Assembly: GCA_049287305.1 (NCBI GenBank)
Contig: JBAQFO010000012.1
Span: forward strand, 7,113-71,112
Length of the DNA stretch: 64,000 nt
Reading direction: 5' to 3'
Source: Minisyncoccia bacterium
GTDB taxonomy: Bacteria > Patescibacteriota > Minisyncoccia > Phycocordibacterales > UBA9973
Shown here: positions 5,446 to 59,424 of the stretch, piece by piece
Layout: each line of letters starts with the position of its first letter
Position numbering within the stretch: the first letter of the stretch is position 1
Program-made: the position numbers and the translations under genes
The notes under the pieces: model-generated
The model's database searches: none
Seen by the model: the letters and a program-made list of their open reading frames with translations, nothing else
Told to the model about the DNA's origin: nothing

Positions 5446-5742
5446 CTACTGACTTAATTTAGCCCTTAAGTCCTCCACTTTTATTTTATCTTTTAGAACT
5501 TTTTGTGTTTTGTTTATTTTATCAATTGCGTTTAACCCCCTTTTCTGCATTTCGGCTATGCTGCGAACACCACCACCTTCAGCTCGCATTGCTTCCTCAA
5601 AAAACGCAAAAGTTAGCTTGTCTTGAATTTTTTGTGGAAATTTCTGCAGATTATCAAGCAGAAAATTTCTAGCACCCTCCTCATCTTCTTTGTCCACGTA
5701 AACTAGAAATTCTTTATAAAGGTCTGAGAATGTAGCATTCAT
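5446..5742 (-). CDS. Hypothetical protein
   Basis: 98-aa ORF 2 nt downstream of the 5745..6749 gene (operon-like spacing). No recognisable motif. Confidence 0.5.
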   Translation of the reverse strand: MNATFSDLYKEFLVYVDKEDEEGARNFLLDNLQKFPQKIQDKLTFAFFEEAMRAEGGGVRSIAEMQKRGLNAIDKINKTQKVLKDKIKVEDLRAKLSQ

Positions 5743-5744
5743 GG

Positions 5745-6749
5745 TTATTTTAATTGGTCTTTTTTATTGCTAATTTCCTCCTCAAACAAACTGGACAAAA
5801 CGTAATTCCAAAACCCCTTGCTTTCCTTGTTCTTTTCTCGGTATTCCTCCTGCTGGTCTTCAATAAACAAATCTTTTATGGCGTCCTGTCCCATATCATC
5901 TTCGGTAGCATATCCTGATTTAACCTTAAAATCTTCCCATGCTTTTTTAAAATCCTTTTCGTCAAAAGCAGCAGCTGTTTCTTTTTTAGCGTTGATAAAT
6001 CCAACCTTCGGTTCTTCTTCGGGGGCGCTTTCAGAAAGTAGTTCTCTAGCCAGGGACTCTCTCATGTCTTCGTTGCCCCTTACACTATAAAAAAGAGATT
6101 CCCCGATGGTATTTTGATGAGTGTTTAACTGCTCTACCGCTTCCGTCAAAGAAACTTCAGAAGCCTTTAATCCCTCTAGTCTGTCTGAGTAATCTCCATC
6201 AATCCAGTTTATTGCTGCCATAAACCTTCCATGTTGACCCTTCGCCAACTTCTTTAGAGCTTTTTTCTTCTCTTTCGGGTCTTCTATTTCAAGCACCTTT
6301 AAATATTCTTCCGGAGAGATGTCGTTGTCCTTGCAGAACTTTTCCACCTTCTCGTTGGTTTTCTTATACTCTCCGTTTCTGTAACTGTCTAATGCTTCTA
6401 TTGGTTCTGCAATCGCGGCAAACCTTGCCTCGTCGGTGATGCACATTTCTTTCAGCTGGCTTCGGACCACGGCGATGGCTTTCTTTGGACCAATAAGATT
6501 TATTAGCTTTGCAAAACTGGGATGATTGCGTGCAATTGCAACTACGCTGTCTTCTGTCAGCATAGCTTCTATTTTTGCTGATTGGGTTAGTTTTTCTGAA
6601 AATTTTAGTCTTACTTCTTCAAGTGCTTCTATGTCGTCTTCCTCCAGTTTTCCCGAAGCAAGTCTTTTAACTAATTCTTCGTGTCCGTCTTGCTCGAGCA
6701 TTTTTCCAAAAAGATGGCTGTCTTTTTTGTCTTTCAGCACTTCCGCCAA
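5745..6749 (-). CDS. Hypothetical acidic coiled-coil protein
   Basis: 334 aa, Glu/Lys-rich, AT-rich host-like codon usage. No recognisable domain. Confidence 0.55.
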   Translation of the reverse strand: MAEVLKDKKDSHLFGKMLEQDGHEELVKRLASGKLEEDDIEALEEVRLKFSEKLTQSAKIEAMLTEDSVVAIARNHPSFAKLINLIGPKKAIAVVRSQLKEMCITDEARFAAIAEPIEALDSYRNGEYKKTNEKVEKFCKDNDISPEEYLKVLEIEDPKEKKKALKKLAKGQHGRFMAAINWIDGDYSDRLEGLKASEVSLTEAVEQLNTHQNTIGESLFYSVRGNEDMRESLARELLSESAPEEEPKVGFINAKKETAAAFDEKDFKKAWEDFKVKSGYATEDDMGQDAIKDLFIEDQQEEYREKNKESKGFWNYVLSSLFEEEISNKKDQLK

Positions 6750-6950
6750 AGTATGACCTTTCGGTGGGGGGTTTGGTGCTCTACTTTCTTTCCTTCCTCT
6801 TCTTTCTTCTCTTTATTTTTTTTAAACTGGTCTAGGATTCCCATATGTTTATTTAGTATAAAACTTTTAATTTTGATAAGCTAATAAAATTATTTTTTCT
6901 ATTTCATATTTTATAATATTTTTAGAAATTTGTCAAGGTCGTTTAAAGTT

Positions 6951-7538
6951 TTACTTTCCTGCCATCCTCTCTCTTATCTCAGCCATCTTTTTCTCTTTTT
7001 TTATTAAGGGGTCGTTATCCTTGTTTTTTTCTGTGTCCGTAAACGCCGCTATCCTGGCCCTTATCTCGGCTATTTTCTTAACTCTTATTTCTTCCATCTC
7101 TGCTTTTTCGGCGGCGATAGCTTCTGTGTTAATAGGCTCTACTTCACTTTTTAATTCTCTTATTTTATATCCAAGCCGAGCCACTTCTCTTTCCTGTTCT
7201 CTTTTTGTGTGTTCGCCCTCATAGTGGGTATCTTTCAGCCTCTCTAGCAACATTTGGGCATTTTTTATATTAACCTCTGCAGTAGTATACAATCTTTCAT
7301 ATGTGTCGTCTTGTGCGTCGAAAATGGCTTTTTCAACATCACCCACCATGTTATGCAACTCTTCTATGCCGTCAAAATTGTTGACTGGTTTTGTTTCTAG
7401 AGCTCGCCTAGGAGATTTTTGTGAAATTTTAGGTCTCTGGGTAATCTTATTATTTTGTAGATTTATCTTCATTACACCGACTTTTTTTATCGGTTTGCCT
7501 TTAGGAGATTTAGGACTATCCCAAAAATTTAATTTCAT
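6951..7538 (-). CDS. Hypothetical Lys/Glu-rich protein
   Basis: 195-aa ORF with predicted coiled coil and no motif. Confidence 0.5.
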   Translation of the reverse strand: MKLNFWDSPKSPKGKPIKKVGVMKINLQNNKITQRPKISQKSPRRALETKPVNNFDGIEELHNMVGDVEKAIFDAQDDTYERLYTTAEVNIKNAQMLLERLKDTHYEGEHTKREQEREVARLGYKIRELKSEVEPINTEAIAAEKAEMEEIRVKKIAEIRARIAAFTDTEKNKDNDPLIKKEKKMAEIRERMAGK

Positions 7539-7639
7539 ATATATATATATTATATAAGGCTTTTGATTTTTAAGCTAATTCTTTATATACCATCATTAAT
7601 AATATGCCTTTTAAAAGATTTTGTAAAACAAGGGGTATA

Positions 7640-7692
7640 TAAAAAATAAAATAAAAAAGACCCCGCGATAAGCATAGCTTTTCTGCGAGGTC
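7640..7692 (-). terminator. Rho-independent terminator downstream of the GC-rich lytic transglycosylase gene
   Basis: On the minus strand, the hairpin gacctcgc...gcggggtc is followed by TTTTTTATTTTATTTTTT. Two more GC hairpins lie between it and the stop codon (7760-7786 ccgaggcggaga/tctccgcctcgg, and 7695-7710 gcggacc/ggtccgc). Confidence 0.55.
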
Positions 7693-7795
7693 TGGCGGAC
7701 CTCGGTCCGCACTTGATTTTTGATGTGATTTGATGTTCTTCTGCATGCTTCCTCCTTTGCCGAGGCGGAGAATGTCTCCGCCTCGGCTTCCTGTC

Positions 7796-9376
7796 TCACT
7801 TCTTGAAACGCGCCTTTGCTTCGGAGCGCGCGTCCTCGAACACCTGCGAGAAGAATTGACGTGACGACGGTGAAACCGTCACGTGGAACGTTCTGCTCCC
7901 CGTCACCTCCTCTATGAAGCTTAGGTATCCATAGTGCTCGAGGTCTTCCAGGATGAATGTCAGGCACCTCCGCTCTCCTTTCGGGAGGTAGAGATATGAA
8001 ACATCGAAGACTTGGCCACTCGTGTGCGTAGGAAATGCCGTCCGAGCGTTGACGATTTTTCCCTTCTTGAGTAGCTCCTGATACTCAAGGTGTCTGACGA
8101 GAGAAGTCACGTCCAACGGCACGAACTCCTCTTTCGGGTAGAGCTTCACGTGCAGGCGGCGGGTTTCAAACGCCACGGTCAGCAGCGCTCCATGGGCAGC
8201 CGGAGAGTTCTGGAGGTAAAGTTCTTGATTCTCCAGGTCCTTTTCGGCGATTGGCCCATTTCCCGAAGTCCGAAGCTTGAAGCCGAAGTAATCCGGCTCT
8301 TCGAACAAGGGCTCAAGCCCTTTTCCGCCACCGTCGCGCGGGTTTAGGTCACGAAGGTTTTTGTAAATCAAGTCCTTCTTGGTGAGCCAGAACCACATGC
8401 GGCTGGGAACCTCGCCCTTTACGTTGACGTTTTCCCTGTATCTCCGGGCCAGCTTTTTGAATTTAGCTGGTTCGGTCTGGTAAAGGTCGAAGAGCTCTGC
8501 GGCTGCGACGACGCGGAACCAATAAGTCGGAGACCAATCCCTTCCCATGTGATAGCGAATCTTGTGATAGATTTTGCTATTAAATGAGGGGTGGTTGAGG
8601 AAGAAAAGCCTCGGCATTGTAACTGGTTCGCCGAAGGCCTTCTTGCCAAGAGAGACCATCTCTTTGACGCACCCTCTTCCACAGTGGAAAGCAAACACCG
8701 CCAGGTCTTCCCCGCCGAGGTCCGCCTCCAACCGTTTCAGGTAATGCGCCGCCGCGAAGATCGACTTCTTGGCGTTGAGCCTGTCGTCTTTCACCACGAC
8801 GGTGTAAGAGACAGTTCTCCACCCGGTTGCCACCTTGCGCCGCTTCTTTCCCTTCCCTTTGTATTTCCATCCTTTGGGAACTTTTTTCTTGCGAACCTCC
8901 TTATTTACCAATCCCGCATCCACCCCTGTGCCTTCGGTGAACTGCATGACTCCGCGAGGACCGGTCGGGCTTTTCGCCCTTGGGTCTCCGCAGCTTTCAA
9001 TCCAAGCCATACCTTGCAGCATGGTCTGGGAGAAACCGCTCTCACGAGCAGCTTCTCTGAAAATCGGCTGAAGAGCATTAATACGTTCGGCGCATTGCAC
9101 AGCGACCGGGCTGCGCAATATTCCAAACTTCTGCTCTTCTACCACCCTCTCTGTTCGCTCAGAGAGAGCGGTTTCCGACATGTTTTCCCGTCCTACGCCA
9201 ACCGAAAGCTGGTGTTTGGGGACGAAAAACGACGGTTTTGTAAGCGCGTTTGTCGTTGCCGTGCCCAGCGTCCGCTGGAACATGACGAAAAGAGTGATGA
9301 GGCCGGTTACGAGAAGAACCTCGCACACTGCCAACACCACCCACCACATACGAGGAACCTCTCTGCAGCTTTTCAT
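7796..9376 (-). CDS. Membrane-anchored lytic transglycosylase (SLT domain) protein, GC-rich gene
   Basis: N-terminal TM segment, then SLT catalytic signature GMAWIESCGDPRAKSPTGPRGVMQFT. GC content is visibly higher than the flanking genes, and the gene has its own terminator. Confidence 0.8.
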   Translation of the reverse strand: MKSCREVPRMWWVVLAVCEVLLVTGLITLFVMFQRTLGTATTNALTKPSFFVPKHQLSVGVGRENMSETALSERTERVVEEQKFGILRSPVAVQCAERINALQPIFREAARESGFSQTMLQGMAWIESCGDPRAKSPTGPRGVMQFTEGTGVDAGLVNKEVRKKKVPKGWKYKGKGKKRRKVATGWRTVSYTVVVKDDRLNAKKSIFAAAHYLKRLEADLGGEDLAVFAFHCGRGCVKEMVSLGKKAFGEPVTMPRLFFLNHPSFNSKIYHKIRYHMGRDWSPTYWFRVVAAAELFDLYQTEPAKFKKLARRYRENVNVKGEVPSRMWFWLTKKDLIYKNLRDLNPRDGGGKGLEPLFEEPDYFGFKLRTSGNGPIAEKDLENQELYLQNSPAAHGALLTVAFETRRLHVKLYPKEEFVPLDVTSLVRHLEYQELLKKGKIVNARTAFPTHTSGQVFDVSYLYLPKGERRCLTFILEDLEHYGYLSFIEEVTGSRTFHVTVSPSSRQFFSQVFEDARSEAKARFKK

Positions 9377-9895
9377 TTCAGTCTTTCCTTATCTGTGTAT
9401 TTTTCCGTTAGCTGTAAGCCCAAAAGGCCATTTCTTGGGTTTACAGCTAACTTTATTTTCAAGGTAGATTCTTGCGCATTATACACCTTTTAGCCTTATT
9501 TGTCAATAAGCTGGTTTTATTAAAATTGAGTGTAAAATACCCCTTTTTTATCCAACTATAGGTAAGTTTCCGAAAAAGGTGTTAAGTTTTTATTAAAATA
9601 TACACTTTTCAGAAAAAATAGGTTTTCCACATATCTCCCCTTTTAGGTTGACTTGAGGCTTTTCATTGGCTACCCTATAGGTATAGTTCTGATTAGGGGT
9701 CCGGTGCTAGCTGTCCGAATGATAGAGTTGATAGTAATAATCGTGAGAACCTTTGTGAGCAGTGCTATAGGTCGTGCTGTAATTCTACCTTATATTAATT
9801 AACTTAATTGGTAGAATAAGGAAATCTCGCGGTAATTTGTTTAGTTTATTAAACCTCAATTTAAAATATTAAGATCTTCCATTGCCTTTTTCCTC

Positions 9896-10909
9896 TTGTT
9901 CGGGGTCCTTTTTTTCCCCCTCATGGTGGAAGCGGGATTCTTTTCTTATTTGGCTGGAGAAAGCGCCAACGCCCAGGTTGTTCCCGCGGTAGCGCAAAAT
10001 AACAGCAACTCTCAGGTAGCCTTTGCTCTTGAACCTATGGCTACATTTGGGTCAGAAAAGAACGACATGCCAGGCGAGGTTGTTATTTCTGACAATGCCC
10101 TTCATGCCCACATTGGCCCGCTCGGCTCCGGCTCGGCGGGCATTTCTAGTGGAGGAACAGGGTCCGGTGACTTCTCTTTTGATGAAATAAGCTTTTACGA
10201 AGTGAGAAAGGGAGACACCTTGGCGCAGGTAGCCGAACTCTTTGATGTTTCCGAAGACACCATTCTTTCCGCCAACGACATGAAGAAGGGCGACAAGCTA
10301 AAGGTGGGTGAAGTCCTTCTTATTCTTCCTTTCTCGGGAGTGGAATACACCGTGGTTAAAGGAGATACTCCGCAAGGTATAGCCAACAAGCACAAGGTGA
10401 GCTTGAATGACATTTTAATACACAATGACATAGACTTGGATTCTCCGCTTTCTATCGGAGACAAGCTTATGATACCGGGAGCAAGTTTGCCGAGCGAGAC
10501 TAAACCAAAAAACGGGGCGGGCAACGTGGCCAAAGGAAAAGGGTCTTCATCAATGCCAAGCATTGTCGGCTTCTTTAAGAATCCTATTTCCGGAGGTAGA
10601 AAATCAAGAGGCGTAACCTCTACCCATAAAGGGGTTGATATCGCGGCTCCAATAGGCACACCTATTTATGCTTCAGCCGGAGGAAAAGTTTTGACCGCGA
10701 AAATGGGGTGGAACGGAGCTTTCGGAAACATGGTAATCTTGCAACACGAAAACGGTACTAAAACTCTTTACGCCCACATGTCAAAACTTGGCACTACAAC
10801 CGGCTCCCAAATAAACCAAGGAGATGTGATCGGATACGTGGGAAACAGCGGACGTTCAACGGGCCCCCATTTGCACTTCGAAGTTTTAGGAGCTAAAAAT
10901 CCTTTCTAG
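9896..10909 (+). CDS. LysM-domain M23 family metallopeptidase (cell-wall hydrolase)
   Basis: Two LysM repeats (VRKGDTLAQVA..., VVKGDTPQGIA...) and the M23 motifs HKGVDIAAP and GPHLHFEV. A signal-peptide-like N-terminus means the true start may be a non-ATG codon slightly upstream. Confidence 0.85.
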   Translation: MFGVLFFPLMVEAGFFSYLAGESANAQVVPAVAQNNSNSQVAFALEPMATFGSEKNDMPGEVVISDNALHAHIGPLGSGSAGISSGGTGSGDFSFDEISFYEVRKGDTLAQVAELFDVSEDTILSANDMKKGDKLKVGEVLLILPFSGVEYTVVKGDTPQGIANKHKVSLNDILIHNDIDLDSPLSIGDKLMIPGASLPSETKPKNGAGNVAKGKGSSSMPSIVGFFKNPISGGRKSRGVTSTHKGVDIAAPIGTPIYASAGGKVLTAKMGWNGAFGNMVILQHENGTKTLYAHMSKLGTTTGSQINQGDVIGYVGNSGRSTGPHLHFEVLGAKNPF

Positions 10910-11689: not shown

Positions 11690-11786
11690 TTGATAATCGT
11701 ATACTAAATAAAACTATTTGCAAAACTTATAAAAAAGCGATGGGCGGGGGTCAGAACGATGATGCCGTTCCGACTACCCCGCCCCT

Positions 11787-11909
11787 TCAGCTGATCCACC
11801 ACAATGCTACCGCGAGGAAGACTATCATGATGGTTGCGAACTGCACGTTGTTGGGAGGGCCTGGTCTTTCCTCCCGCAACTCTGCCCAGTAACGCTCTAG
11901 CAGATTCAT
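11787..11909 (-). CDS. Small single-TM protein (40 aa), GC-rich
   Basis: Own translation: MNLLERYWAELREERPGPPNNVQFATIMIVFLAVALWWIS. SD AAGGAG lies 9 nt upstream, and a GC hairpin (ggcgggg/ccccgcc) plus T-run follows the stop. Not in the ORF track (under 60 aa). Overlapping track ORFs in other frames lack such signals. Confidence 0.35.
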   Translation of the reverse strand: MNLLERYWAELREERPGPPNNVQFATIMIVFLAVALWWIS

Positions 11910-12054
11910 ACGATGGGTCTCCTTCTGCCCCGAATTCTACATATAAAAATTTTTTAGTCAACCAACAGGTTTGGATTAAGTCCGTATAAAAAAACAAGGC
12001 GGGGACGAGGCGATGTTCTGCCTCTTACTCCCCGCCTTGCGGCGATCGTGCGTG

Positions 12055-12204
12055 TTACGAGATCAATGCGATGACGGCGGTCAGGAGCAGTGTTGCTCCG
12101 GTGACCCACCGCAACCAGATTGCCACGTACCACCACGGCTTTTTTTCGGTCTGTTTGACGTCGTCGCCCCAGACCGAAGTGCCTGCCGGTGTCAGAATGG
12201 CCAT
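12055..12204 (-). CDS. Small single-TM protein (49 aa), GC-rich
   Basis: Own translation: MAILTPAGTSVWGDDVKQTEKKPWWYVAIWLRWVTGATLLLTAVIALIS. SD GGAGG lies 6 nt upstream. A perfect 11-bp-stem hairpin (caaggcgggga/tccccgccttg, 11995-12038) followed by TTTTTTT on the minus strand is a classic intrinsic terminator. Confidence 0.4.
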   Translation of the reverse strand: MAILTPAGTSVWGDDVKQTEKKPWWYVAIWLRWVTGATLLLTAVIALIS

Positions 12205-12313
12205 TCGGCACCTCCTTCGTTTTTGATACTACAACTATCTTATAATTAGTCAAATTTATAACTTCAGAGGCTAGAATATTTATCTTCTTTGTGTTAAGAT
12301 AATCCAGTTGAAG

Positions 12314-23497: not shown

Positions 23498-23653
23498 ATT
23501 GTCATTCTTGACTTGTTTTTATTAAAATGTTTATAATAGAAACATGGAAAGGAAGGCGCAAAATATGTATATGGCCAACACAAACCCAATAGTTCGGGGT
23601 TGGTTATTGCGTTGCATTTCTTAACTATCTTTAAAAAAATGAAACTCAAAAAA

Positions 23654-23680
23654 ACAGCCCTGAACAGGGCTGTTTTTCGT
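23654..23680 (+). terminator. Intrinsic terminator at the left border of a GC-rich island
   Basis: acagccct-gaac-agggctgt followed by TTTTT. Confidence 0.6.
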
Positions 23681-23729
23681 TCATTGACAACTGAAGAGAG
23701 AGTCTACCCCAAAAAGAAAGGACCTTACC

Positions 23730-24173
23730 ATGAGCAAAATTACCCTTCTGGAGAAGAAGGAAATTATTGCAGTCACGCCGCATGTTCGCTTCGTGGCTTC
23801 CGATTTCTTTCGTGGTTGGCAAGTTGGTTTGAATTTTGAGAATCTGTTCCTTGGTGTTGTTGAAGAAACAGGTGGACAGTCAGTCGAGATTGAATTGCAC
23901 GACCTTTCCGAGTGGTTGGTAAACGGTCCAATCATTGAGGAGTTGGGTGGGGCGTCAAAGACGGGTATCTCTCTGGCGACCTTCGCCGCAATCGCTGCGA
24001 CCGGATGCTCCTTCGTTGCCCACGTTCTTGACGAGGACAGCAAACCCTGGGCAGTTTTCTATCGCCAAGAAGGGGCGCAGCATGTCGCCGGAGCGGATTC
24101 CACCGACTACAAATATTGGTGGTATGGCGGCGGGCGGTTTGCTTCTCCGCATCTCACCCCGTGTATTCTCTGA
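23730..24173 (+). CDS. Hypothetical protein (GC-rich island gene 1)
   Basis: 147-aa ORF with a GC-rich codon profile and an upstream AAGAAAGGA ribosome-binding site. Confidence 0.5.
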   Translation: MSKITLLEKKEIIAVTPHVRFVASDFFRGWQVGLNFENLFLGVVEETGGQSVEIELHDLSEWLVNGPIIEELGGASKTGISLATFAAIAATGCSFVAHVLDEDSKPWAVFYRQEGAQHVAGADSTDYKYWWYGGGRFASPHLTPCIL

Positions 24174-24287
24174 CAATTGGTTTACTAAATAGAAACACAT
24201 GCGTGTAGTTTGTGTGTTCACCTGACTGAGTGTGGGTTTCCTGCACTTTCCATTAACTCCGGTAACGCCAAAAAAGGAGGTGAAAAC

Positions 24288-24497
24288 ATGAACCGCAACA
24301 ACGAAGAGACGTTCGAACTGGAGTGCCGACATCTCGTCCAATTGCTCCGGCAAGAAGAGGGGTTGTCTCTGCAAGATCTGCAGGATCAGGACAACCCTGT
24401 CGCGCTCGAGCTGGTGGAAGACTTCTGTGAAGAGGCTGGAATCTCTCGAGAGTGGTTCGAGGGGTTCGTGGGTCGGATGATTCTAGCGCTCAATTGA
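24288..24497 (+). CDS. Small acidic protein (GC-rich island gene 2), paralog of gene 3
   Basis: Start at the internal ATG, 5 nt after AAGGAGGTG. Product MNRNNEETFELECRHLVQLLRQ...DNPVALELVEDFCEEAGISREWFEGFV. Confidence 0.5.
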   Translation: MNRNNEETFELECRHLVQLLRQEEGLSLQDLQDQDNPVALELVEDFCEEAGISREWFEGFVGRMILALN

Positions 24498-24698
24498 GCG
24501 TACGGGAGAAGCACCGCTTCCGCCGACAACAATCGCACGCCCGCAGACGCGTAGTTTGCTGGGCATTGCAATTGGATATTGGTTTAACCAATATCTTCCA
24601 TCAACCTGGGTTCTGGCTCAGTTCAAACTGAGCTGCAGTGCGAGTCGCTCTAACAAAGCGACTCGCACTGCCCCAAAACTGCGTGAAAGGAGAAGCAG

Positions 24699-25106
24699 AT
24701 GCACAGCAATTCCACCCTCAACATCCTCAACGAGGAAGCCGCCGAGCGAGAGCTCCGAGGGCGACGGACCAGCAAGCAGTGCGAGTCGCTTGAGTGGCAA
24801 TGCCGGCTACTCGCCAACGTGCTCGCCGCCTGCTGCCTGACCATCAGCGAACTCGAGGATGACCCGACCTCAACCGACCGTGTCGCAGAAATTTTCTGCC
24901 ACGACACTGGTCTCGAGCGGGGAGACTTCGATCGTCTCGTTCAGGACGTGCGCGCCACGCTTGCCTCGGCGAGCCGGAAGCTGAGAGATACGTCTCTCAG
25001 GTTCCGCGGGAGTGGAGGTCGGCACCGAAACCTCGACGAGGTTGAGCGTCAGCCCGACCCCCTGGGACGTACTCGGGCTCAGTATGGCTGGTGGCCGAAA
25101 GACTGA
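24699..25106 (+). CDS. Hypothetical protein (GC-rich island gene 3), paralog of gene 2
   Basis: AAAGGAGAAG ribosome-binding site. The segment ...LEWQCRLLANVL...DDPTSTDRVAEIFCHDTGLERGDFDRLV aligns with gene 2. Confidence 0.5.
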   Translation: MHSNSTLNILNEEAAERELRGRRTSKQCESLEWQCRLLANVLAACCLTISELEDDPTSTDRVAEIFCHDTGLERGDFDRLVQDVRATLASASRKLRDTSLRFRGSGGRHRNLDEVERQPDPLGRTRAQYGWWPKD

Positions 25107-25181
25107 GCTGCAGCACGGGTCGTTGGATGACCAGCGATCCGTGCTGCCCCACTACCACTTCAAATGTAAGGGGCACAAGAC

Positions 25182-25448
25182 ATGACACGCAAAGTAGAAA
25201 ACGACAGCGATGCAGAAAGTCTCCACAAGAGGCTCCAGCAGATCAATGGGGTGCGTAAGCAGCACGGAGAAAACGACAAAACCATCGCTGCGCTGACAGA
25301 ATCTCTCTCGCATGACGGTTTCTCGGACGAGGGAGAAGCTTGGAATACACTGGTAGAGTACTATCAAACTCACCGTCGCGTTGAAAAGATTTACGTGGCA
25401 GATCGACCTCTGTTTCCAGACGGCAGAAAGTCGTGGTATCCGCTGTAG
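25182..25448 (+). CDS. Hypothetical protein (GC-rich island gene 4)
   Basis: 88-aa ORF with an upstream AAGGGG ribosome-binding site. Confidence 0.45.
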   Translation: MTRKVENDSDAESLHKRLQQINGVRKQHGENDKTIAALTESLSHDGFSDEGEAWNTLVEYYQTHRRVEKIYVADRPLFPDGRKSWYPL

Positions 25449-25470
25449 AACTACTCAACAATCATCGAAA

Positions 25471-25519
25471 TGACCGTGCGCAAGGTGTACACACCTACGC
25501 ACGGTCATTCTCTTTTTTG
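25471..25519. terminator. Intrinsic terminator at the right border of the GC-rich island (possibly bidirectional with xth)
   Basis: 10-bp stem tgaccgtgcg/cgcacggtca followed by TTCTCTTTTTTG. Confidence 0.65.
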
Positions 25520-54445: not shown

Positions 54446-57400
54446 ATGTGCATGAGTAAAAAATCTATTGTGCGATTTTATTTGCGTCCTGTTTTTTATG
54501 TGTTTTTGGTTACGGTAGCGTTAGTCCTTACTTTTACTATGTTCGTGCCCGCTTCCGCGTCTGCAGCAACGCTTAGCATCCAGCTTAGCGATAGCGCTTG
54601 CGGAGGCACCCGCGCCGGTTCTGCTGCGACTGCCTCTGCCAGCGGGACTGCGAGCGACTGGTCGGGTTATGCCATAGATTCCAATGGCTACGATGCAGAC
54701 TGCGCCAAAGTAGACATGGCGGGAATTACTGAAAGTATGGATTTCCGCGTAGGTATCCAGCTTACTGATGGGGACGCTGGTTGTAGTAGCTCCGAAGCCG
54801 GAACTTCAAGATTGTCTCCTTGGGCTAGCACCGGAGGAGGTTATACAGCTTGGGCTTCGGATTCAAATTCCTATGACCCGGACTGCGCTCAGGTTTATCT
54901 TGAAACCCGGCCCGCTCCTGACGGCGCAGCCATAAAAAACGCAAGCGTACAACTACAGGCCTCCGACAATGCCTGTAGTTCTCAGCTGGGTTCTTCTGTA
55001 GCGGGGGCATGGGTAACAGATTCCAACGGCTACGATTTTGACTGCCTCCGGTTAAAAGTGGTGGCAGACGTTGTTCCGCTCGGCACAGTCACGGTCCAGA
55101 CGCAGGCCTTCGACAAGGATGGCAATCTTATAACCAGCAAACCAGCAGTCAGTTGGACAATAAGTGGACCTCCTGGCGCGCCCAACTGTAACGGTACCAA
55201 TCTTACTGAAAAAACCTGCGAACGCATGCCCTACGGTTCTTACGCTTTTAATCCGGATGGTGTTGATGAAACGATAGGAACAAAAACTTATGAATTTATC
55301 GGTGTGGTTACTCCCCAAACGTTAGGCACGACATCTCCTCCGGCAGGGGCTTGTCCTTCCGGTCAGGCCAATCCTCACCTTGAGTATAACTCAAGCGGTT
55401 CCTGCGGATCTGTAAACAGCTGTGGCGCATCTGAATGCTCCGTTGGCGGCGGTGGCGGCAATGGTGGAGGGATGGACCAACAACTCAATTTTCTGCCGAG
55501 ATCTTCCATATTCTCTGTAATTAAATCTTTTTTCGTAACCAAGAAAGCTTCGGCTCTCCTCGCGGAAGGCGGGTACTGTCAAATTCCTACTGGCAGTGAG
55601 GGGGGTAGTTGTGGAAGTTCCCAGGCTACGTGTTTTAGTCCGTGTACTTGGTATGAACCTGGGGACGGCGGAGGTGATCCTTTGCCGACTCCGCCACCGC
55701 CAAACGACCCGCCACCGACACCCGTCCAGATCTTTTTTACTATCCAATATAAAGAAAAGGCGGTCGTTACCCCTACAGCTTCTTGCACCGTGTCTCCAGC
55801 TTCACCGATGGCAAATGGAACTAACCCAACAATTACTTTTACCACAAATTCGTCTTCAAATTACTGTTATGTTCGTAACGACAATCTCCCAAGCACTGGA
55901 AATCCTGCCCTTCCTGGGTCAAATTTCCCATCAGTAGCAGCACAACCACTTCAATTATCTGGAGGAAGCGATATATACAGCCCCGGAGCTCTATCAGCAG
56001 GGATTCATAATGGTACTATATATTGCCAAACCACATCTGGAACAACGATTACTGAGCCTAATAGCGGGTGGCAGTCTTGTCAATATACTGTTAGCGCTTC
56101 AGCAACTTACGATGTTCTTGGTACCCATAATAGCGGGGGAACAATAACTTCCACCAATCCTAGAACGAATATTGCCGCGGGGGCCTCTACAACTTTTACT
56201 CTTTCTCCAACCGGAACAAACGTAGTAGACAAAACAGATGTTTCCAGCACATCGACTTCATGTGTCTTAAACACAAGTGGATGGTCGGGCAACACCTACA
56301 CCACGGGCGCAATTAATGCCGACTGTACCTACTCTTTTAGTTTTAAATCAGGAGTCGTTTCACCGGTTCCTTACGTTGACCTTACGGCTTCAACTCCAAC
56401 CCCTACTACGGCCGCGATTGGAACACCCGTGACCTTCTCTTCAGCAATTTCCAATGATGGCACAGCTTCTACCGGAGCTTCTTTCTACAACCTGTTCCAA
56501 GTAGCAACGGCAACAAATGGTGGTGGCACAATTACGAGCCTTACTCCGGCTCTTTCCACCACTACTTTGAACGCAGGGACAACTAGGTCTGTTAATTCTC
56601 CTTCATATACATTTACCGGTTCAGCTGGAACGCGTTCAGTTCGCGCTTGCGCTGACAAGAATTCTGTCGCAGGCACGGGAACAATTTCCGAAGCATCTCC
56701 GGGGAGTGAAAACAACAACTGTAGCGCGTGGAGAAACGTGTTAGTAGGCAGTTCTTACGTTGACCTTACGGCTTCAACTCCAACCCCTACTACGGCGACA
56801 GTAGGAGTAGCGCAGACGTTCACTTCTACTATTACAAACAGCGGAACTGTCTCTACTGGAGCAGGTTTTGCAAATCTATTTCAAACATCCACCTTAGCTA
56901 ATGGTGGGGGAATAGTGACCGACTATCTAGTTAGTCCTAATATGAGTTCCTTGTTGGCGGGCACAAATGCTCCAGCTACGAAATCAATTACGTTTTCTTC
57001 AGCGGGAACTATATATATGCGTGCCTGTGCAGATAAAAATTCCGCTACCGGAACCGGAACAATTTCAGAAGTATCTCCGGGGAGTGAAAACAACAACTGT
57101 AGCGCGTGGGTAGCGATAACATTGATTCCTCAGGGAACAATAGCGGGAACGCACGATCAATATAGTGGCACAGTAGCTTCCTCGTCTCAATGTCATGCTG
57201 ATGGGTGGGCTGCTTACTCTACGGATAAAGCTCTTGACCTTAATGTCAGAATTTTAAGTGACGGAGTTTCGGTAGCGACCGGGGTGGCTGGAACTTATAG
57301 GGCAGACTTGCAAGCAGCAGGAGTTTGCACAGGGGGGACGTGTGGCTTTTATATAAATTTGGCTGGGGTGATAACTCCAGGAGTTAATCATGTAATCACA

Positions 57401-58246
57401 GCTCAGGCGCAAAATCCCGCTACTCTTGCTTGGACCTCTCTTGCCTCCACTCCCAAAACACTTAACTGTCCTTCTTCCATAGACTTAACGGCCTCCGCTC
57501 CCACTCAAAATACAGCGACAATAGGCTCAGCTAAAACATTCACTTCCAACATTTCCAACGCTGGCACAAACTCAACAGGAGTTTCTTTCTACAACTCTTT
57601 GCAAGTAGCAACGGCTGCCGGTGGTGTGGGCGCAGTAAATCCTCTTATTGCGTCAACACCTTCTCCTATGACAGCTCTTACTGCCGGGACATCATCCACC
57701 GCGAGTGCTTCTTACACATTTACCGGTTCTGCGGGAACCCGTTCGGTAAGATTCTGCGCAGATAATAATACATCCATGTCGGGAACAATAACAGAGACTC
57801 CTGCTGCCAACGAAAACAACAATTGTAGCTCTTGGACAAATGTTATCGTTAGCGCCGCTTGCTCCGCCAACCAAGGCAACGCTTGCTCTTCTTCTCCTAA
57901 CTCTTGCGGGCAAGTAAGCTCAGGTGTAATTCAATGTAGTGGTAACTGCTCAGCTTCAACCCCTTCGGAAAGTAGTTGTACCGGGGGAGTGTGCACGAAT
58001 GGCTCAACAAATTATCCTACTTGTAATAATGTGTGTGCCAACGGAGCAACTAATCCACCTACCTGCGACATCAATCCTGGCGCTAATGGGGTATGTTCTC
58101 CAAATCACTACAGCTGTTCTTCTCCTACTGCAAGCACAAGCAACGTAAACGCCCCCGACAGGTGGACATGGATATGTCCCGGGATAAGCGGGACAAACGC
58201 TTCGTGTTCCGAACTCAAAAAGAAGCCCATCTTTATTGAAGATTAA
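54446..58246 (+). CDS. Giant secreted Thr/Ser/Gly-rich surface protein with CARDB-like repeats and Cys-rich C-terminus
   Basis: Signal peptide. Three roughly 55-aa Cys-pair repeats (DSNGYDxDC), then three roughly 120-aa CARDB-like repeats (YVDLTASTPTPTTA...ENNNCSAW) that are nearly identical at the DNA level. C-terminal region with about 20 Cys. Confidence 0.8.
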   Translation: MCMSKKSIVRFYLRPVFYVFLVTVALVLTFTMFVPASASAATLSIQLSDSACGGTRAGSAATASASGTASDWSGYAIDSNGYDADCAKVDMAGITESMDFRVGIQLTDGDAGCSSSEAGTSRLSPWASTGGGYTAWASDSNSYDPDCAQVYLETRPAPDGAAIKNASVQLQASDNACSSQLGSSVAGAWVTDSNGYDFDCLRLKVVADVVPLGTVTVQTQAFDKDGNLITSKPAVSWTISGPPGAPNCNGTNLTEKTCERMPYGSYAFNPDGVDETIGTKTYEFIGVVTPQTLGTTSPPAGACPSGQANPHLEYNSSGSCGSVNSCGASECSVGGGGGNGGGMDQQLNFLPRSSIFSVIKSFFVTKKASALLAEGGYCQIPTGSEGGSCGSSQATCFSPCTWYEPGDGGGDPLPTPPPPNDPPPTPVQIFFTIQYKEKAVVTPTASCTVSPASPMANGTNPTITFTTNSSSNYCYVRNDNLPSTGNPALPGSNFPSVAAQPLQLSGGSDIYSPGALSAGIHNGTIYCQTTSGTTITEPNSGWQSCQYTVSASATYDVLGTHNSGGTITSTNPRTNIAAGASTTFTLSPTGTNVVDKTDVSSTSTSCVLNTSGWSGNTYTTGAINADCTYSFSFKSGVVSPVPYVDLTASTPTPTTAAIGTPVTFSSAISNDGTASTGASFYNLFQVATATNGGGTITSLTPALSTTTLNAGTTRSVNSPSYTFTGSAGTRSVRACADKNSVAGTGTISEASPGSENNNCSAWRNVLVGSSYVDLTASTPTPTTATVGVAQTFTSTITNSGTVSTGAGFANLFQTSTLANGGGIVTDYLVSPNMSSLLAGTNAPATKSITFSSAGTIYMRACADKNSATGTGTISEVSPGSENNNCSAWVAITLIPQGTIAGTHDQYSGTVASSSQCHADGWAAYSTDKALDLNVRILSDGVSVATGVAGTYRADLQAAGVCTGGTCGFYINLAGVITPGVNHVITAQAQNPATLAWTSLASTPKTLNCPSSIDLTASAPTQNTATIGSAKTFTSNISNAGTNSTGVSFYNSLQVATAAGGVGAVNPLIASTPSPMTALTAGTSSTASASYTFTGSAGTRSVRFCADNNTSMSGTITETPAANENNNCSSWTNVIVSAACSANQGNACSSSPNSCGQVSSGVIQCSGNCSASTPSESSCTGGVCTNGSTNYPTCNNVCANGATNPPTCDINPGANGVCSPNHYSCSSPTASTSNVNAPDRWTWICPGISGTNASCSELKKKPIFIED

Positions 58247-58470: not shown

Positions 58471-59229
58471 ATGCGTCGCTTCGTTTTGCTGTTTGTGTTG
58501 TTCTCACTGCTGTCCTCCTCGGTGGAGGCAGCGAGCCGTCGACGGGCCGTGCGGTTTCCGTCTCCGGAACCTGTTGTTCCTCCAGCTCCTGCAGTCACCA
58601 CTGTTCTCACTGTGATCTACGAAGATCCGGATGGGAACGGAGTGACTAATGCATGGGTTGGAGCGCAGACACTTGGTCCGGCTCATAAAGGGGCCAAGTT
58701 TGTCCGGTCGGTCAAGAAACCGGGGGACAACGCGTTCTCTCTGCTCGGCAACACGGTCGTGGAGGCACACCAGGACGGGATGTATCGGACGTTCTGGCTC
58801 TTCTATGGCGAGGAGTTTTACGATCAACTGCCGGATGGCACCAAGCTGCCGTGGCGGCCTGGTATCGCCATCTACAAGGTGGAAGAGACTTCGCCGGAAG
58901 GATTGGTCACGGAGTCCTACACTCAGGTGCAGGTGCCGCTTCGTGCGGAACCGGTTGCCGGGTTTGGGCCGCTTCTCAAAGCTGTTCCCACAGCTGACGG
59001 AAAGCGCATCACTCTGTATGGAGTATTTGCCACCCCGCCAGTGGCCATGCTCTATCACAGAGAGGGTCCGGGGCTCTACCGGAGCCAGGAGGTGAAGGTC
59101 ATCAACAACGAGGTTCAGGTTCCGGAAGGGATGGCGGGGCAGGATTCCCCTCTGGTCGTGTGTGCGGGTTATTCCGCGGCGGATTGCAACACCGTCGAAG
59201 TGGACATCCCGAACCCTCCGAAGTTCTAA
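58471..59229 (+). CDS. Secreted protein encoded in a GC-rich insert
   Basis: GAGGAGGAGG ribosome-binding site, signal peptide MRRFVLLFVLFSLLSSSVEA. Very GC-rich by eye. Confidence 0.6.
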   Translation: MRRFVLLFVLFSLLSSSVEAASRRRAVRFPSPEPVVPPAPAVTTVLTVIYEDPDGNGVTNAWVGAQTLGPAHKGAKFVRSVKKPGDNAFSLLGNTVVEAHQDGMYRTFWLFYGEEFYDQLPDGTKLPWRPGIAIYKVEETSPEGLVTESYTQVQVPLRAEPVAGFGPLLKAVPTADGKRITLYGVFATPPVAMLYHREGPGLYRSQEVKVINNEVQVPEGMAGQDSPLVVCAGYSAADCNTVEVDIPNPPKF

Positions 59230-59370: not shown

Positions 59371-59424
59371 ATAAAGCGTTTTAATAACATCCCAAGCGGG
59401 ATTTTTTTTGTTATACTATATAAG

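Follow-up and report, generated by a model that had tools for sequence, protein, structure and literature searches.

A probably imported gene for a predicted membrane-anchored, two-domain peptidoglycan hydrolase in a hypervariable interval of a Minisyncoccia genome

Family-1 lytic transglycosylases (LTs; Slt70, MltC/D/E/F; PF01464, GH23) together with the LT domain of T7 gp16, and the LAS (clan MD) zinc peptidases VanY/LdcB (M15B), VanX (M15D), MepA (M74), and Hedgehog-N, are the closest described counterparts of the two domains of the protein reported here; the former are kin of its LT domain, and the latter appear from structural modeling to have a fold in common with its C-terminal DUF5715 domain. 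Bifunctional peptidoglycan hydrolases are also known among the Acinetobacter T6SS effectors, namely, Tae17 (LT and CHAP amidase) and Tse4 (LT and endopeptidase) (PMC11796386). By analogy with them, the present protein would combine an LT and a peptide-cleaving domain in one chain for an attack on both glycan and peptide. With regard to gene arrangement, phage morons are likewise single ORFs of sharply deviant GC content that run from a strong sigma-70 promoter to an intrinsic terminator between genes adjacent in relatives, and integron cassettes are likewise unrelated genes at one position and in one orientation, each followed by a conserved hairpin-forming sequence (attC). The gene compared here with these systems lies in a 64,000-nucleotide stretch of the Minisyncoccia contig JBAQFO010000012.1 (referred to below as the window). 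In our likely overall account, it is an imported gene for a two-domain, anchored peptidoglycan hydrolase, which is served by transcription signals belonging to the slot and is located in the hypervariable interval that separates uvrD from an M23 peptidase gene.

The SLT gene, GC-rich and foreign in composition, occupies positions 7796..9376 of the (−) strand and encodes a 526-aa product containing GMAWIESCGDPRAKSPTGPRGVMQFT; with the start assigned by NCBI (M10 at 9349), the product has 517 aa. The protein is matched exactly on a 156-kb contig of a Minisyncoccia MAG, and an independent second assembly (Logan, SRR28062879) matches the sequence with 100% identity across 4,481 bp that include both GC junctions. 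The ORF is a genuine gene in a Minisyncoccia (CPR/Patescibacteria) chromosome. On the opposite strand, the 300-aa ORF (8591..9493, (+) strand) is a composition artefact and not a gene, as had been supposed from its GC richness; its stop-free run of 263 codons is within the expectation from synonymous-codon shuffles of the SLT gene (196 ± 50 codons), 10.6% of which match or exceed it, and the ORF has no PHROG match. The N-terminal part of the SLT protein contains a signal-anchor or transmembrane helix (residues ~10–33; 9278..9349, (−) strand), with a Kyte–Doolittle peak of 2.66 at residues 13–31 and a helix spanning residues 10–42 in the AF2 model (overall pLDDT, 88.3). In the alignment, homologues elsewhere have a short signal peptide or a lipobox where the window protein has its membrane anchor. 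Thus, the protein is presumably an extracytoplasmic hydrolase held in the membrane by its N-terminal signal-anchor.

The family-1 (SLT/GH23) LT domain covers residues ~60–315 (8432..9199, (−) strand). It was matched by Pfam SLT (PF01464) with 45 bits against a cut-off of 21.3 bits, as were all 25 aligned family members, and profile matches in the PDB were T7 gp16, MltF, and MltE. This match and the N-terminal hydrophobic helix bear out the sequence-only reading, an earlier interpretation of the same DNA, in its claim of a gene for a membrane-anchored SLT-type lytic transglycosylase. The domain is predicted to have a goose-lysozyme-like alpha fold and carries the catalytic E127-S128, G142-x-M-Q145, and H231-x-G233, the last replacing AYNxG. 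Across the window protein and 135 relatives, 136 full-length sequences in all, E127 is conserved in 135, S128 in 133, G142 in all 136, and Q145 in 131. A Lys/Arg-rich beta-hairpin is inserted within the domain (residues ~158–197; 8786..8905, (−) strand); the insertion is conserved family-wide and is modeled by AF2 as strands at residues 158–197 with pLDDT of ~71–78. Judging from these motifs, the protein would act as a transglycosylase, predicted to cleave the glycan backbone between MurNAc and GlcNAc, E127 being the catalytic acid, and to leave 1,6-anhydro-MurNAc ends.

The C-terminal domain, which went unmentioned in the sequence-only reading, comprises residues ~390–526 (7799..8209, (−) strand) and is predicted to adopt a Hedgehog/DD-peptidase (LAS) fold. 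DUF5715 (PF18979) scores 17.8–22.4 bits against the window protein, below its gathering cut-off of 26.8 bits; the same family matches seven of seven subgroup members (best E = 6.3e-12) and is the precomputed annotation on homologues of the window protein. The motifs of the domain are S425-x2-R428...Q433, H451-x2-G-x3-D458, E490, and H498. In the 136 sequences, the residues of the H-x6-D...H triad are kept in 129 (H451), 129 (D458), and 122 (H498), and E490, located 8 residues before H498 in a placement like that of Hedgehog E177, is conserved in 109, with Asp instead in another 11. A VanY-like motif, S-x2-R...Q, occurs in the window protein and ~60% of the sequences. The predicted model of the domain shows the Hedgehog/DD-peptidase fold, with the Hedgehog N-domain as the closest structural match. 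Sequence comparison gave no comparable support: the Peptidase_M15, VanY, and M74 profiles did not match the C-terminal domain at E ≤ 10, a PDB sequence search with its profile returned no match, and an hhalign comparison with Shh-N, which placed H451-D458 onto H141-D148 in register, was non-significant (E = 0.28). From the model, the domain is probably of LAS fold with a His-Asp-His triad that is probably zinc-dependent.

Whether such a domain would act as a peptidase is uncertain because the canonical ExxH glutamate, expected 3 residues before H498, is absent; the position is R495 in the window protein and is gapped or variable across the family. An alternative reading is that the domain is non-enzymatic and serves as a zinc-stabilised binder of peptidoglycan or peptide stems that targets the transglycosylase. 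Besides the unconserved VanX/VanY glutamate, the lack of sequence similarity to the M15 families and the Hedgehog N-domain as top structural match speak for it, since the peptidase activity of the Hedgehog N-domain is itself debated. The retention of the triad and of an acidic residue at position 490 in most of the family, and of S-x2-R...Q in the window protein and many others, is in favor of an enzyme, and we consider the non-enzymatic reading possible though on balance unlikely. As a VanY/LdcB-like LAS domain, the DUF5715 domain would bind peptide stems, which it would probably also trim or cleave. A full-text literature search found no paper mentioning DUF5715, and the present analysis offers a first structural reading of this family: a domain of LAS fold that probably depends on zinc and is joined to a lytic transglycosylase.

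The SLT gene stands out from its host in composition. Its GC content is 0.54 with sharp edges, its GC3 is 0.653 against a window median of 0.431, and its RSCU correlates with that of host genes at 0.06, compared with 0.57–0.73 for long host genes against the host set. The gene is located in a hypervariable multi-gene interval from uvrD to a LysM-M23 endopeptidase gene, and its neighbours are uvrD, three ORFans without a recognised family, the LysM-M23 peptidase gene, and a ZIP transporter gene. Eight related CPR loci (L088–L090 and L170–L174) share the order RrnaAD-UvrD-(variable)-M23-ZIP-UPF0102-CCA; none of them contains an SLT homologue (best tblastn E = 0.31), and at four of them (L090 and L172–L174) the site is empty, with uvrD abutting the M23 gene. 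Rfam has no family for the upstream element of the M23 gene or for the region at 11.7–12.3 kb. Collectively, horizontal acquisition of the SLT gene is well supported and very probable. In this respect, the sequence-only reading proved correct: the DNA is GC-rich relative to both neighbours, its codon usage is foreign, and the same insert, whose presence at the syntenic position in relatives would have spoken for an ancestral gene, is found in 0 of 8 uvrD-M23-ZIP loci. The picture of a single-gene insert into otherwise conserved DNA did not hold, the interval being multi-gene and hypervariable.

The SLT gene might instead be an ancestral CPR gene of unusual composition, or the product of an assembly chimera, and in line with this, other low-GC, CPR-like contigs contain divergent members of the family; one of these contigs is labelled Patescibacteria, and in two (L085 and L087) the GC3 of the family member is host-like. 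This reading is largely refuted and appears extremely improbable, given that the gene is missing from all eight syntenic intervals, that its codon usage is uncorrelated with that of the host, that the CPR-like members are just 32–44% identical to the window protein, and that two assemblies agree base for base over both junctions. The imported gene would have been taken up from an unsampled, GC-richer source. Its un-ameliorated GC3 points to a fairly recent import, yet no sampled protein is >46% identical; the direction and recency of the transfer are inferred. In two of the four nearest contigs (L083 and L085–L087), the homologue likewise exceeds its neighbours in GC content, so that a GC bias intrinsic to the gene is possible as well. 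The GC-rich islands may or may not have a common origin: their codon usage correlates only moderately (r = 0.34–0.59), as expected from shared GC bias. No homologue of the island-3 protein was found, and searching viral contigs with the island-2 ORFs and the cargo gene of L088, the closest relative, gave nothing convincing.

Across 5.8 billion proteins, 185,579 species genomes, and an exhaustive HMMER scan, the top identity to the window protein was 44–46%. A single-protein scan of the species genomes returned no relatives; an alignment-based scan did find them, and 80 of the 262 GTDB species-genome relatives found were kept. All 80 belong to Acidobacteriota, with an average GC content of 0.60 at their loci, and the named matches of the protein search are from Acidobacteria or Bryobacteraceae. 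The family amounts to ~226 clusters at 50% identity and is common in soil Acidobacteriota. These observations raise the idea that the gene came directly and recently from a donor in Acidobacteriota (Bryobacterales), where the family is commonest and GC-rich. Against this, identity to the window protein is just 38–46%, and in an unrooted neighbour-joining tree, the window protein falls outside the Acidobacteriota clade with 100% bootstrap and clusters with proteins encoded on low-GC contigs (P0002, P0004, P0042-46, and P0048). For the nearest contigs, L083 and L085–L087, taxonomy was inferred from low GC and one 'Patescibacteria' label (P0048). Moreover, the window protein retains the S-x2-R...Q motif, lost in the Bryobacterales clade (Glu at position 428), and has a membrane anchor, not a periplasmic signal peptide. 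The acidobacterial-donor idea was rejected on the tree and the motif differences, and we regard such a donor as very unlikely. The acidobacterial homologues are stand-alone chromosomal genes without conserved context; their most frequent neighbour cluster is seen at 16 of the 80 loci, at varying positions.

The sequence-only reading had taken the gene as typical cargo of a phage, a conjugative element, or a secretion/pilus system, for instance, an endolysin, a virion lysin, or a VirB1-like protein. Indeed, T7 gp16 is the best solved relative of the LT domain, PHROG matches to virion and tail lysins cover residues 89–161, and the gene is moron-like as a single ORF of deviant GC running from promoter to terminator. 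However, the likeness to T7-gp16-type virion proteins is limited to the LT domain (residues ~67–235; ~30% identity); none of the phage or viral records (0) covers ≥80% of the protein, the matches ending at residue 235–277, and TMq in BFVD is ≤0.25. There is no plasmid match, the neighbours include no integrase, capsid, T4SS, or pilus gene, and the acidobacterial homologues, as stated above, stand alone in chromosomes. Homology searching, by which that reading was to be checked, finds the family abundant in Acidobacteriota and no sampled protein above 46% identity, and an origin as phage, conjugation, or secretion cargo seems highly improbable.

Upstream of the SLT gene is a sigma-70-type promoter, TTGACA-17-TATAAT, agreeing with the consensus at 12 of 12 positions (9478..9506, (−) strand); in the alignment, the context of its −35 box, ATTGACAAAT, is common to the window and L088. 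A leader hairpin (9407..9451, (−) strand) with an 18-bp stem, one mismatch, and a 7-nt loop begins ~20 nt past the predicted transcription start and leaves the RBS uncovered. An 11-bp inverted repeat had been reported there; it is present but longer than stated, with arms of 17 nt that are 94% complementary. The RNA fold of the hairpin has an energy of −24.7 kcal/mol (z = −6.0); the hairpin is unique within the window, is not conserved in L088, and is a candidate mRNA stabiliser or operator. Transcription from the consensus promoter would produce a leader of ~95 nt with this stable hairpin and proceed to a three-hairpin 3' module and terminator; the use of both promoter and terminator is predicted from their form. 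Rfam has no family for the leader hairpin or the 3' module.

The 3' module begins 9 nt past the stop codon with hairpin 1 (13 bp; 7759..7787, (−) strand), the fold of which is retained in L088 through 3–4 compensatory pair changes. It is followed by an SD-like motif, AAAGGAGG (7751..7758, (−) strand), also conserved in L088. A 58-codon ORF behind this motif (from 7746) was considered and rejected, as its start, SD spacing, and C-terminus are unconserved in L088. Hairpin 2 (GCGGACC-GA-GGTCCGC; 7694..7712, (−) strand) lies within a 30-nt block with 96.7% identity to L088, and hairpin 3 with its T-run forms an intrinsic terminator (7636..7693, (−) strand; hairpin itself, 7658–7693), showing one compensatory pair change (A-U to G-C) relative to L088. 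The MFE of the module is −59.3 kcal/mol (z = −6.2), which was equalled by 0 of 200 shuffles. Three hairpins and a T-run had been placed at 7640–7692; all are real, but this range covers the last hairpin and the T-run only.

In L088, the same slot contains an unrelated GC-rich gene, followed by the same three-hairpin module. What the window and L088 have in common is confined to the M23-proximal region, the −35 box, the 30-nt block, and the compensatorily kept hairpins; the ORFs and all other DNA out to uvrD are unrelated. Since the −35 region and the 3' module flank an unrelated gene in L088, they are features of the slot and not the SLT gene's own, as the hairpins and terminator had been thought to be. 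The arrangement could be taken as a cassette-exchange slot, in which a fixed promoter and the three-hairpin module bracket swapped, unrelated GC-rich genes with SLT as the current cargo, by site-specific recombination at the hairpins or homologous recombination via the conserved flanks. The restricted likeness between the two loci, the GC3 outlier status of both cargo genes (0.65 for the SLT gene and 0.61 for the L088 gene), and the empty sites in other relatives are consistent with such exchange. On the other hand, the module is present in two genomes only and absent from six other related loci, allowing ≤5 edits; no recombinase gene is adjacent, the nearest tyrosine recombinase being 18 kb from the SLT gene and conserved in relatives; and integron attC core sites (RYYYAAC / GTTRRRY) are absent from 7600–7830 and 9370–9520 on both strands. 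Scans for hairpin 2 in JGI metagenomes (21-mer, four matches) and IMG/VR (19-mer, two matches) likewise gave chance matches only, all in DNA of 65–71% GC. A simpler reading is that an ancestral terminator was retained while the upstream ORF was replaced once, and we hold cassette exchange to be unlikely. More speculative, and rather doubtful, is the extension that the M23-adjacent interval is a dedicated expression slot of this CPR lineage, in which a fixed strong promoter and the conserved 3' module surround interchangeable GC-rich genes from an unsampled pool, possibly that of the host or of host mobile elements, with the hairpins as the capture or recombination site; the present cargo, as a surface-anchored enzyme acting on both glycan and peptide, could then be directed at the wall of the host to which the epibiont is attached.

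The import of the SLT gene is solid and fairly ordinary gene transfer, the exception being the unrelated gene of L088 in the same slot. If the ordinary reading alone holds, the locus provides a well-characterised horizontal transfer of a cell-wall hydrolase, of kinds already known. The import into this Minisyncoccia genome is clean and looks recent, and its source is missing from 5.8 billion public proteins. The genomes of CPR bacteria are tiny, and their life is thought to be spent attached to other cells; therefore, any surface enzyme that they acquire offers a hint of how they remodel their own wall or breach that of a host. That two sister genomes have unrelated GC-rich genes in one slot, with a common structured 3' module behind them, is a hint of gene capture at this site.

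Compared with the known systems, the window LT domain differs from family-1 LTs and T7 gp16 in its ~40-residue basic beta-hairpin insertion, in A(F/Y)HCG in place of AYNxG in its family, in its fusion to a LAS-fold domain, and in its anchoring by a transmembrane helix, the organism being one thought to have no outer membrane. Unlike the LAS peptidases, the DUF5715 domain has no detectable sequence homology to them and no ExxH glutamate, its sole Pfam match being the sub-cut-off DUF5715. The window protein is unrelated in sequence to Tae17 and Tse4; its second domain is predicted to be of LAS fold, not CHAP, it has no T6SS or delivery domain and no evident immunity gene, and it is membrane-anchored, not injected. 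Integron cassettes differ from the slot in having R''/R' core sites and intI, whereas the SLT gene has its promoter and leader, and the slot holds one cassette per genome in the two genomes known. In contrast to the morons of prophages, the SLT locus is chromosomal, and its promoter and terminator appear to be owned by the locus, where they accompany a different gene in the relative.

We consider it quite probable, for all parts jointly, that the SLT gene was acquired horizontally, that it would code for a membrane-anchored, two-domain peptidoglycan hydrolase, and that it would be expressed from signals resident in its slot, the position between uvrD and M23, within a hypervariable uvrD–M23 interval. 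The sequence-only reading had described a 526-aa SLT-domain protein encoded by DNA richer in GC than both neighbours. Indeed, the ORF was found on the minus strand at 7796–9376 (526 aa) and contains the peptide quoted there, and the GC-rich block begins and ends abruptly, at ~7690 and ~9370, between flanks of GC 0.18–0.38 (60-nt windows). The codon usage of the gene shows no correlation with that of the host's genes (r = 0.06); for long genes of the host, the correlation with the host set is 0.57–0.73. A second assembly, from a public run, matches at 100% across 4,481 bp, both GC junctions included, and the identical protein is encoded on a 156-kb contig of the Minisyncoccia (CPR/Patescibacteria) MAG GCA_049303715.1. 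The antisense 300-aa ORF, suspected of being an artefact, has a length expected from base composition: its stop-free run is 263 codons vs 196 ± 50 in synonymous shuffles of the SLT gene, 10.6% of which attain the observed length.

The adjacent gene for a LysM-M23 endopeptidase (9896–10909) has thousands of CPR homologues, the nearest 69% and 60% identical, and the contigs of the closest ones keep the order RrnaAD-UvrD-[variable]-M23-ZIP-UPF0102-CCA, with UvrD proteins 74–85% identical to that of the window. SLT-family similarity was present in none of the eight related CPR loci compared by synteny (best tblastn E-value, 0.31). In L090 and L172–L174, uvrD adjoins the M23 upstream region directly, forming an empty site, and L088 and L089 carry other genes at this position, unrelated to one another. 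The lack of a homologue in the eight loci, the empty sites, and the foreign codon usage show that the gene is an insert and not an ancestral syntenic gene; the horizontal insertion claimed from the sequence thus withstood the synteny comparison proposed along with it. The stretch from uvrD to the SLT gene contains three low-GC ORFans rich in Lys and Glu (98, 334, and 195 aa; 5446–7538, minus strand); no relative has a homologue of them in its syntenic interval, and L088 and L089 have other large proteins without a recognised family in their place. Therefore, the whole uvrD–M23 interval is hypervariable, not the SLT gene alone.

A word-indexed search returned 46 relatives of the SLT protein, with the top non-self match 44% identical, and 262 were returned when 185,579 species genomes were scanned with an alignment. 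The 80 of these that were kept are all from Acidobacteriota, mostly Bryobacterales, at 38–46% identity, and their loci have a mean GC of 0.60. HMMER, run exhaustively over 1.84 billion cluster representatives, gave 226 clusters at E ≤ 1e-30; the SLT protein is its own cluster representative, with nothing nearer than 44%. Neighbour-joining bootstrap analysis grouped the SLT protein in 100/100 replicates with homologues P0002, P0004, P0042–46, and P0048, apart from the acidobacterial clade, and the source contigs of these homologues have flank GC of 0.40–0.50; one cluster member carries a Patescibacteria label. A recent gift from sampled Acidobacteriota is therefore very improbable. Of the four low-GC contigs, two have the homologue at a host-like GC3 and the other two at a mildly raised one; the window copy is the most extreme.

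The closest relative, L088 (JGI 3300045986, Ga0496761_000005), whose UvrD and ZIP are 85% and 84% identical to those of the window, holds in its slot (8556–9458, minus strand) a single GC-rich gene, which adjoins M23 in the same orientation as the SLT gene and encodes a 245-aa membrane protein, with a GC3 of 0.61 vs 0.29–0.42 for its neighbours. Between this protein and the SLT protein there is no similarity. The three GC hairpins described in the SLT 3' UTR exist at 7759–7787, 7694–7712, and 7658–7693, with a U-run after the last, and the folded 3' UTR has an MFE of −59.3 kcal/mol (z = −6.2). The same three-hairpin architecture follows the L088 gene, in the order of hairpin 1, AAGGAGG, an A/T-rich spacer, hairpin 2, and the terminator hairpin: between window and L088, the structure of hairpin 1 is maintained by 3–4 compensatory pair changes, hairpin 2 lies within a block of 30 nt with 96.7% identity, and the terminator hairpin shows one compensatory change. 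Because the same 3' module flanks an unrelated gene, the hairpins and terminator belong to the slot and not, as had been supposed, to the SLT gene. Upstream, a perfect sigma-70 consensus (TTGACA-17-TATAAT) is present at 9506–9478; the −35 context ATTGACAAAT is common to window and L088, the leaders differ, and the remainder of the uvrD–M23 interval is unrelated. The inverted repeat noticed in the 5' leader is real, with arms of 17 nt and not the 11 bp reported, and forms as RNA an 18-bp stem (−24.7 kcal/mol, z = −6.0). Neither the leader nor the 3' hairpin sequence has a second copy elsewhere within the window. A 58-codon ORF (7570–7746, minus strand) starts 6 nt past a strong AAAGGAGG in the SLT 3' UTR and crosses the terminator; this SD-like motif is kept in L088 but the ORF behind it is not, and it is therefore probably non-coding.

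The simplest reading of the shared slot is replacement of the ORF alone, with an ancestral promoter and terminator left in place on either side; a site of gene capture or exchange also fits. Against an integron-like system stand the absence of attC core motifs and of an adjacent recombinase, the occurrence of the module in two genomes only, and hairpin 2 scans of metagenome and viral collections, which gave only chance matches in high-GC DNA.

A Pfam search of the protein gave SLT (45 bits) and a weak match to DUF5715 (PF18979) over residues 418–501. In a 25-sequence alignment, E127-S128, G142, Q145, H231, and G233 are invariant in the N-terminal half, and H451, G454, D458, and H498 in the C-terminal half. 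The AlphaFold2 model predicted from this alignment (mean pLDDT, 88.3) consists of an N-terminal helix (10–42), a helical lysozyme-like domain that bears a beta-hairpin insertion (158–197), and an alpha/beta C-terminal domain, and its matches to the LAS (Hedgehog/DD-peptidase) fold were Sonic hedgehog (9.6), MepA (7.5), VanX (7.3), LdcB (7.0), VanXY (6.7), and Ply500 (6.2). In sequence searches with the C-terminal domain, DUF5715 was the sole match, in 7/7 subgroup members (best E = 6e-12), and no solved chain was matched; a search of the accessible literature found no mention of DUF5715. In an alignment of the window protein with 135 relatives from the word-indexed and HMMER searches (136 sequences, all full-length), E127 is kept in 135, H451 and D458 in 129 each, H498 in 122, E490 in 109 (Asp in 11 more), R428 in 81, and Q433 in 72. 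The protein thus has VanY-like S-x2-R...Q, H-x2-G-x3-D, a Glu like that of Hedgehog, and a distal His; it does not have the ExxH glutamate found in VanX and VanY. We take these motifs to define VanY, VanX, and Hedgehog. Its sole strongly hydrophobic segment is residues 13–31 (Kyte–Doolittle, 2.66); short signal peptides are found in the homologues from Acidobacteriota, and a lipobox in P0002. By every testable criterion, the SLT protein belongs to the family-1 lytic transglycosylases (LTs). We read it as a type-II anchored ectoenzyme with a predicted glycan-cutting domain and a second domain, probably zinc-dependent, predicted to be directed at the peptide stem.

Besides the SLT gene, the window contains two further GC3 outliers. 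A 2-kb island at 23500–25500 (outlier, 23.6–25.4 kb; GC ~0.56, GC3 up to 0.72) has only small ORFs without a recognised family (147, 95, 135, and 88 aa), with a promoter of 11/12 consensus at its left edge (23508–23537). It is inserted between the genes for Asp/Glu racemase and exonuclease III; in L088, these two genes overlap. The other (58471–59229, plus strand; GC3 0.66) encodes a 252-aa ORFan with a signal peptide, which matched only itself among 5.8 billion proteins and nothing in Pfam, NCBIfam, or PHROG; the gene comes with a weak promoter of its own and a terminator (59389–59402). The genome therefore acquires small GC-rich transcription units again and again, from a pool of which little has been sampled. 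The GC bump at 54.5–55.5 kb is explained without foreign origin by the high GC2 (0.61, well above the GC3 of 0.40) of the gene at 54446–58246 (plus strand) for a 1,266-aa CARDB-domain protein, whose composition is consistent with a Gly/Ala/Thr/Pro-rich surface protein. A GC-rich stretch at 11700–12313 (plus strand; GC ~0.53), located between ZIP and the genes for tRNA-Pro and tRNA-Gly and without a convincing ORF, folds unusually well (z = −5.1) into several long GC hairpins, with no Rfam match and no tmRNA; this stretch, both tRNAs, and the next gene (373 aa) are extra relative to L088, where the ZIP–UPF0102 gap is ~370 nt. Upstream of LysM-M23, a ~250-nt intergenic element (9648–9895, plus strand) is kept in six CPR genomes (window, L088, L089, L090, L170, and L172) with an invariant TTGACT box. 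RNAalifold gave a 13-bp long-range helix around a hairpin, with 86.9% of pair cells paired vs 43–53% with partners slid, and weak covariation; the element, which has no Rfam match, may be a structured M23 leader, like LysM-associated RNA motifs.

The suggestion that the gene is cargo of phages or conjugative elements was not borne out. IMG/VR and GenBank phages match the LT domain only (residues ~67–277, ~30% identity), through T7-gp16-type virion proteins; no record in either covers at least 80% of the SLT protein, its BFVD fold matches have TMq ≤ 0.25, and PLSDB plasmids gave no match. The gene is neighboured by uvrD, the three ORFans, the LysM-M23 peptidase, and the ZIP transporter, and the acidobacterial homologues are stand-alone genes with no conserved neighbourhood. 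With its single ORF, promoter, terminator, and deviant GC, the SLT gene resembles a phage moron, but lies outside any prophage. The C-terminal domain resembles LAS/clan-MD peptidases in its predicted working and predicted fold, but fails sequence-level membership and has no canonical general base; we therefore class it as a LAS-fold DUF5715 domain and not among the M15 peptidases. Tae17 and Tse4, T6SS effectors that are bifunctional wall hydrolases (PMC11796386), are like the SLT protein in its predicted function, but unrelated to it.
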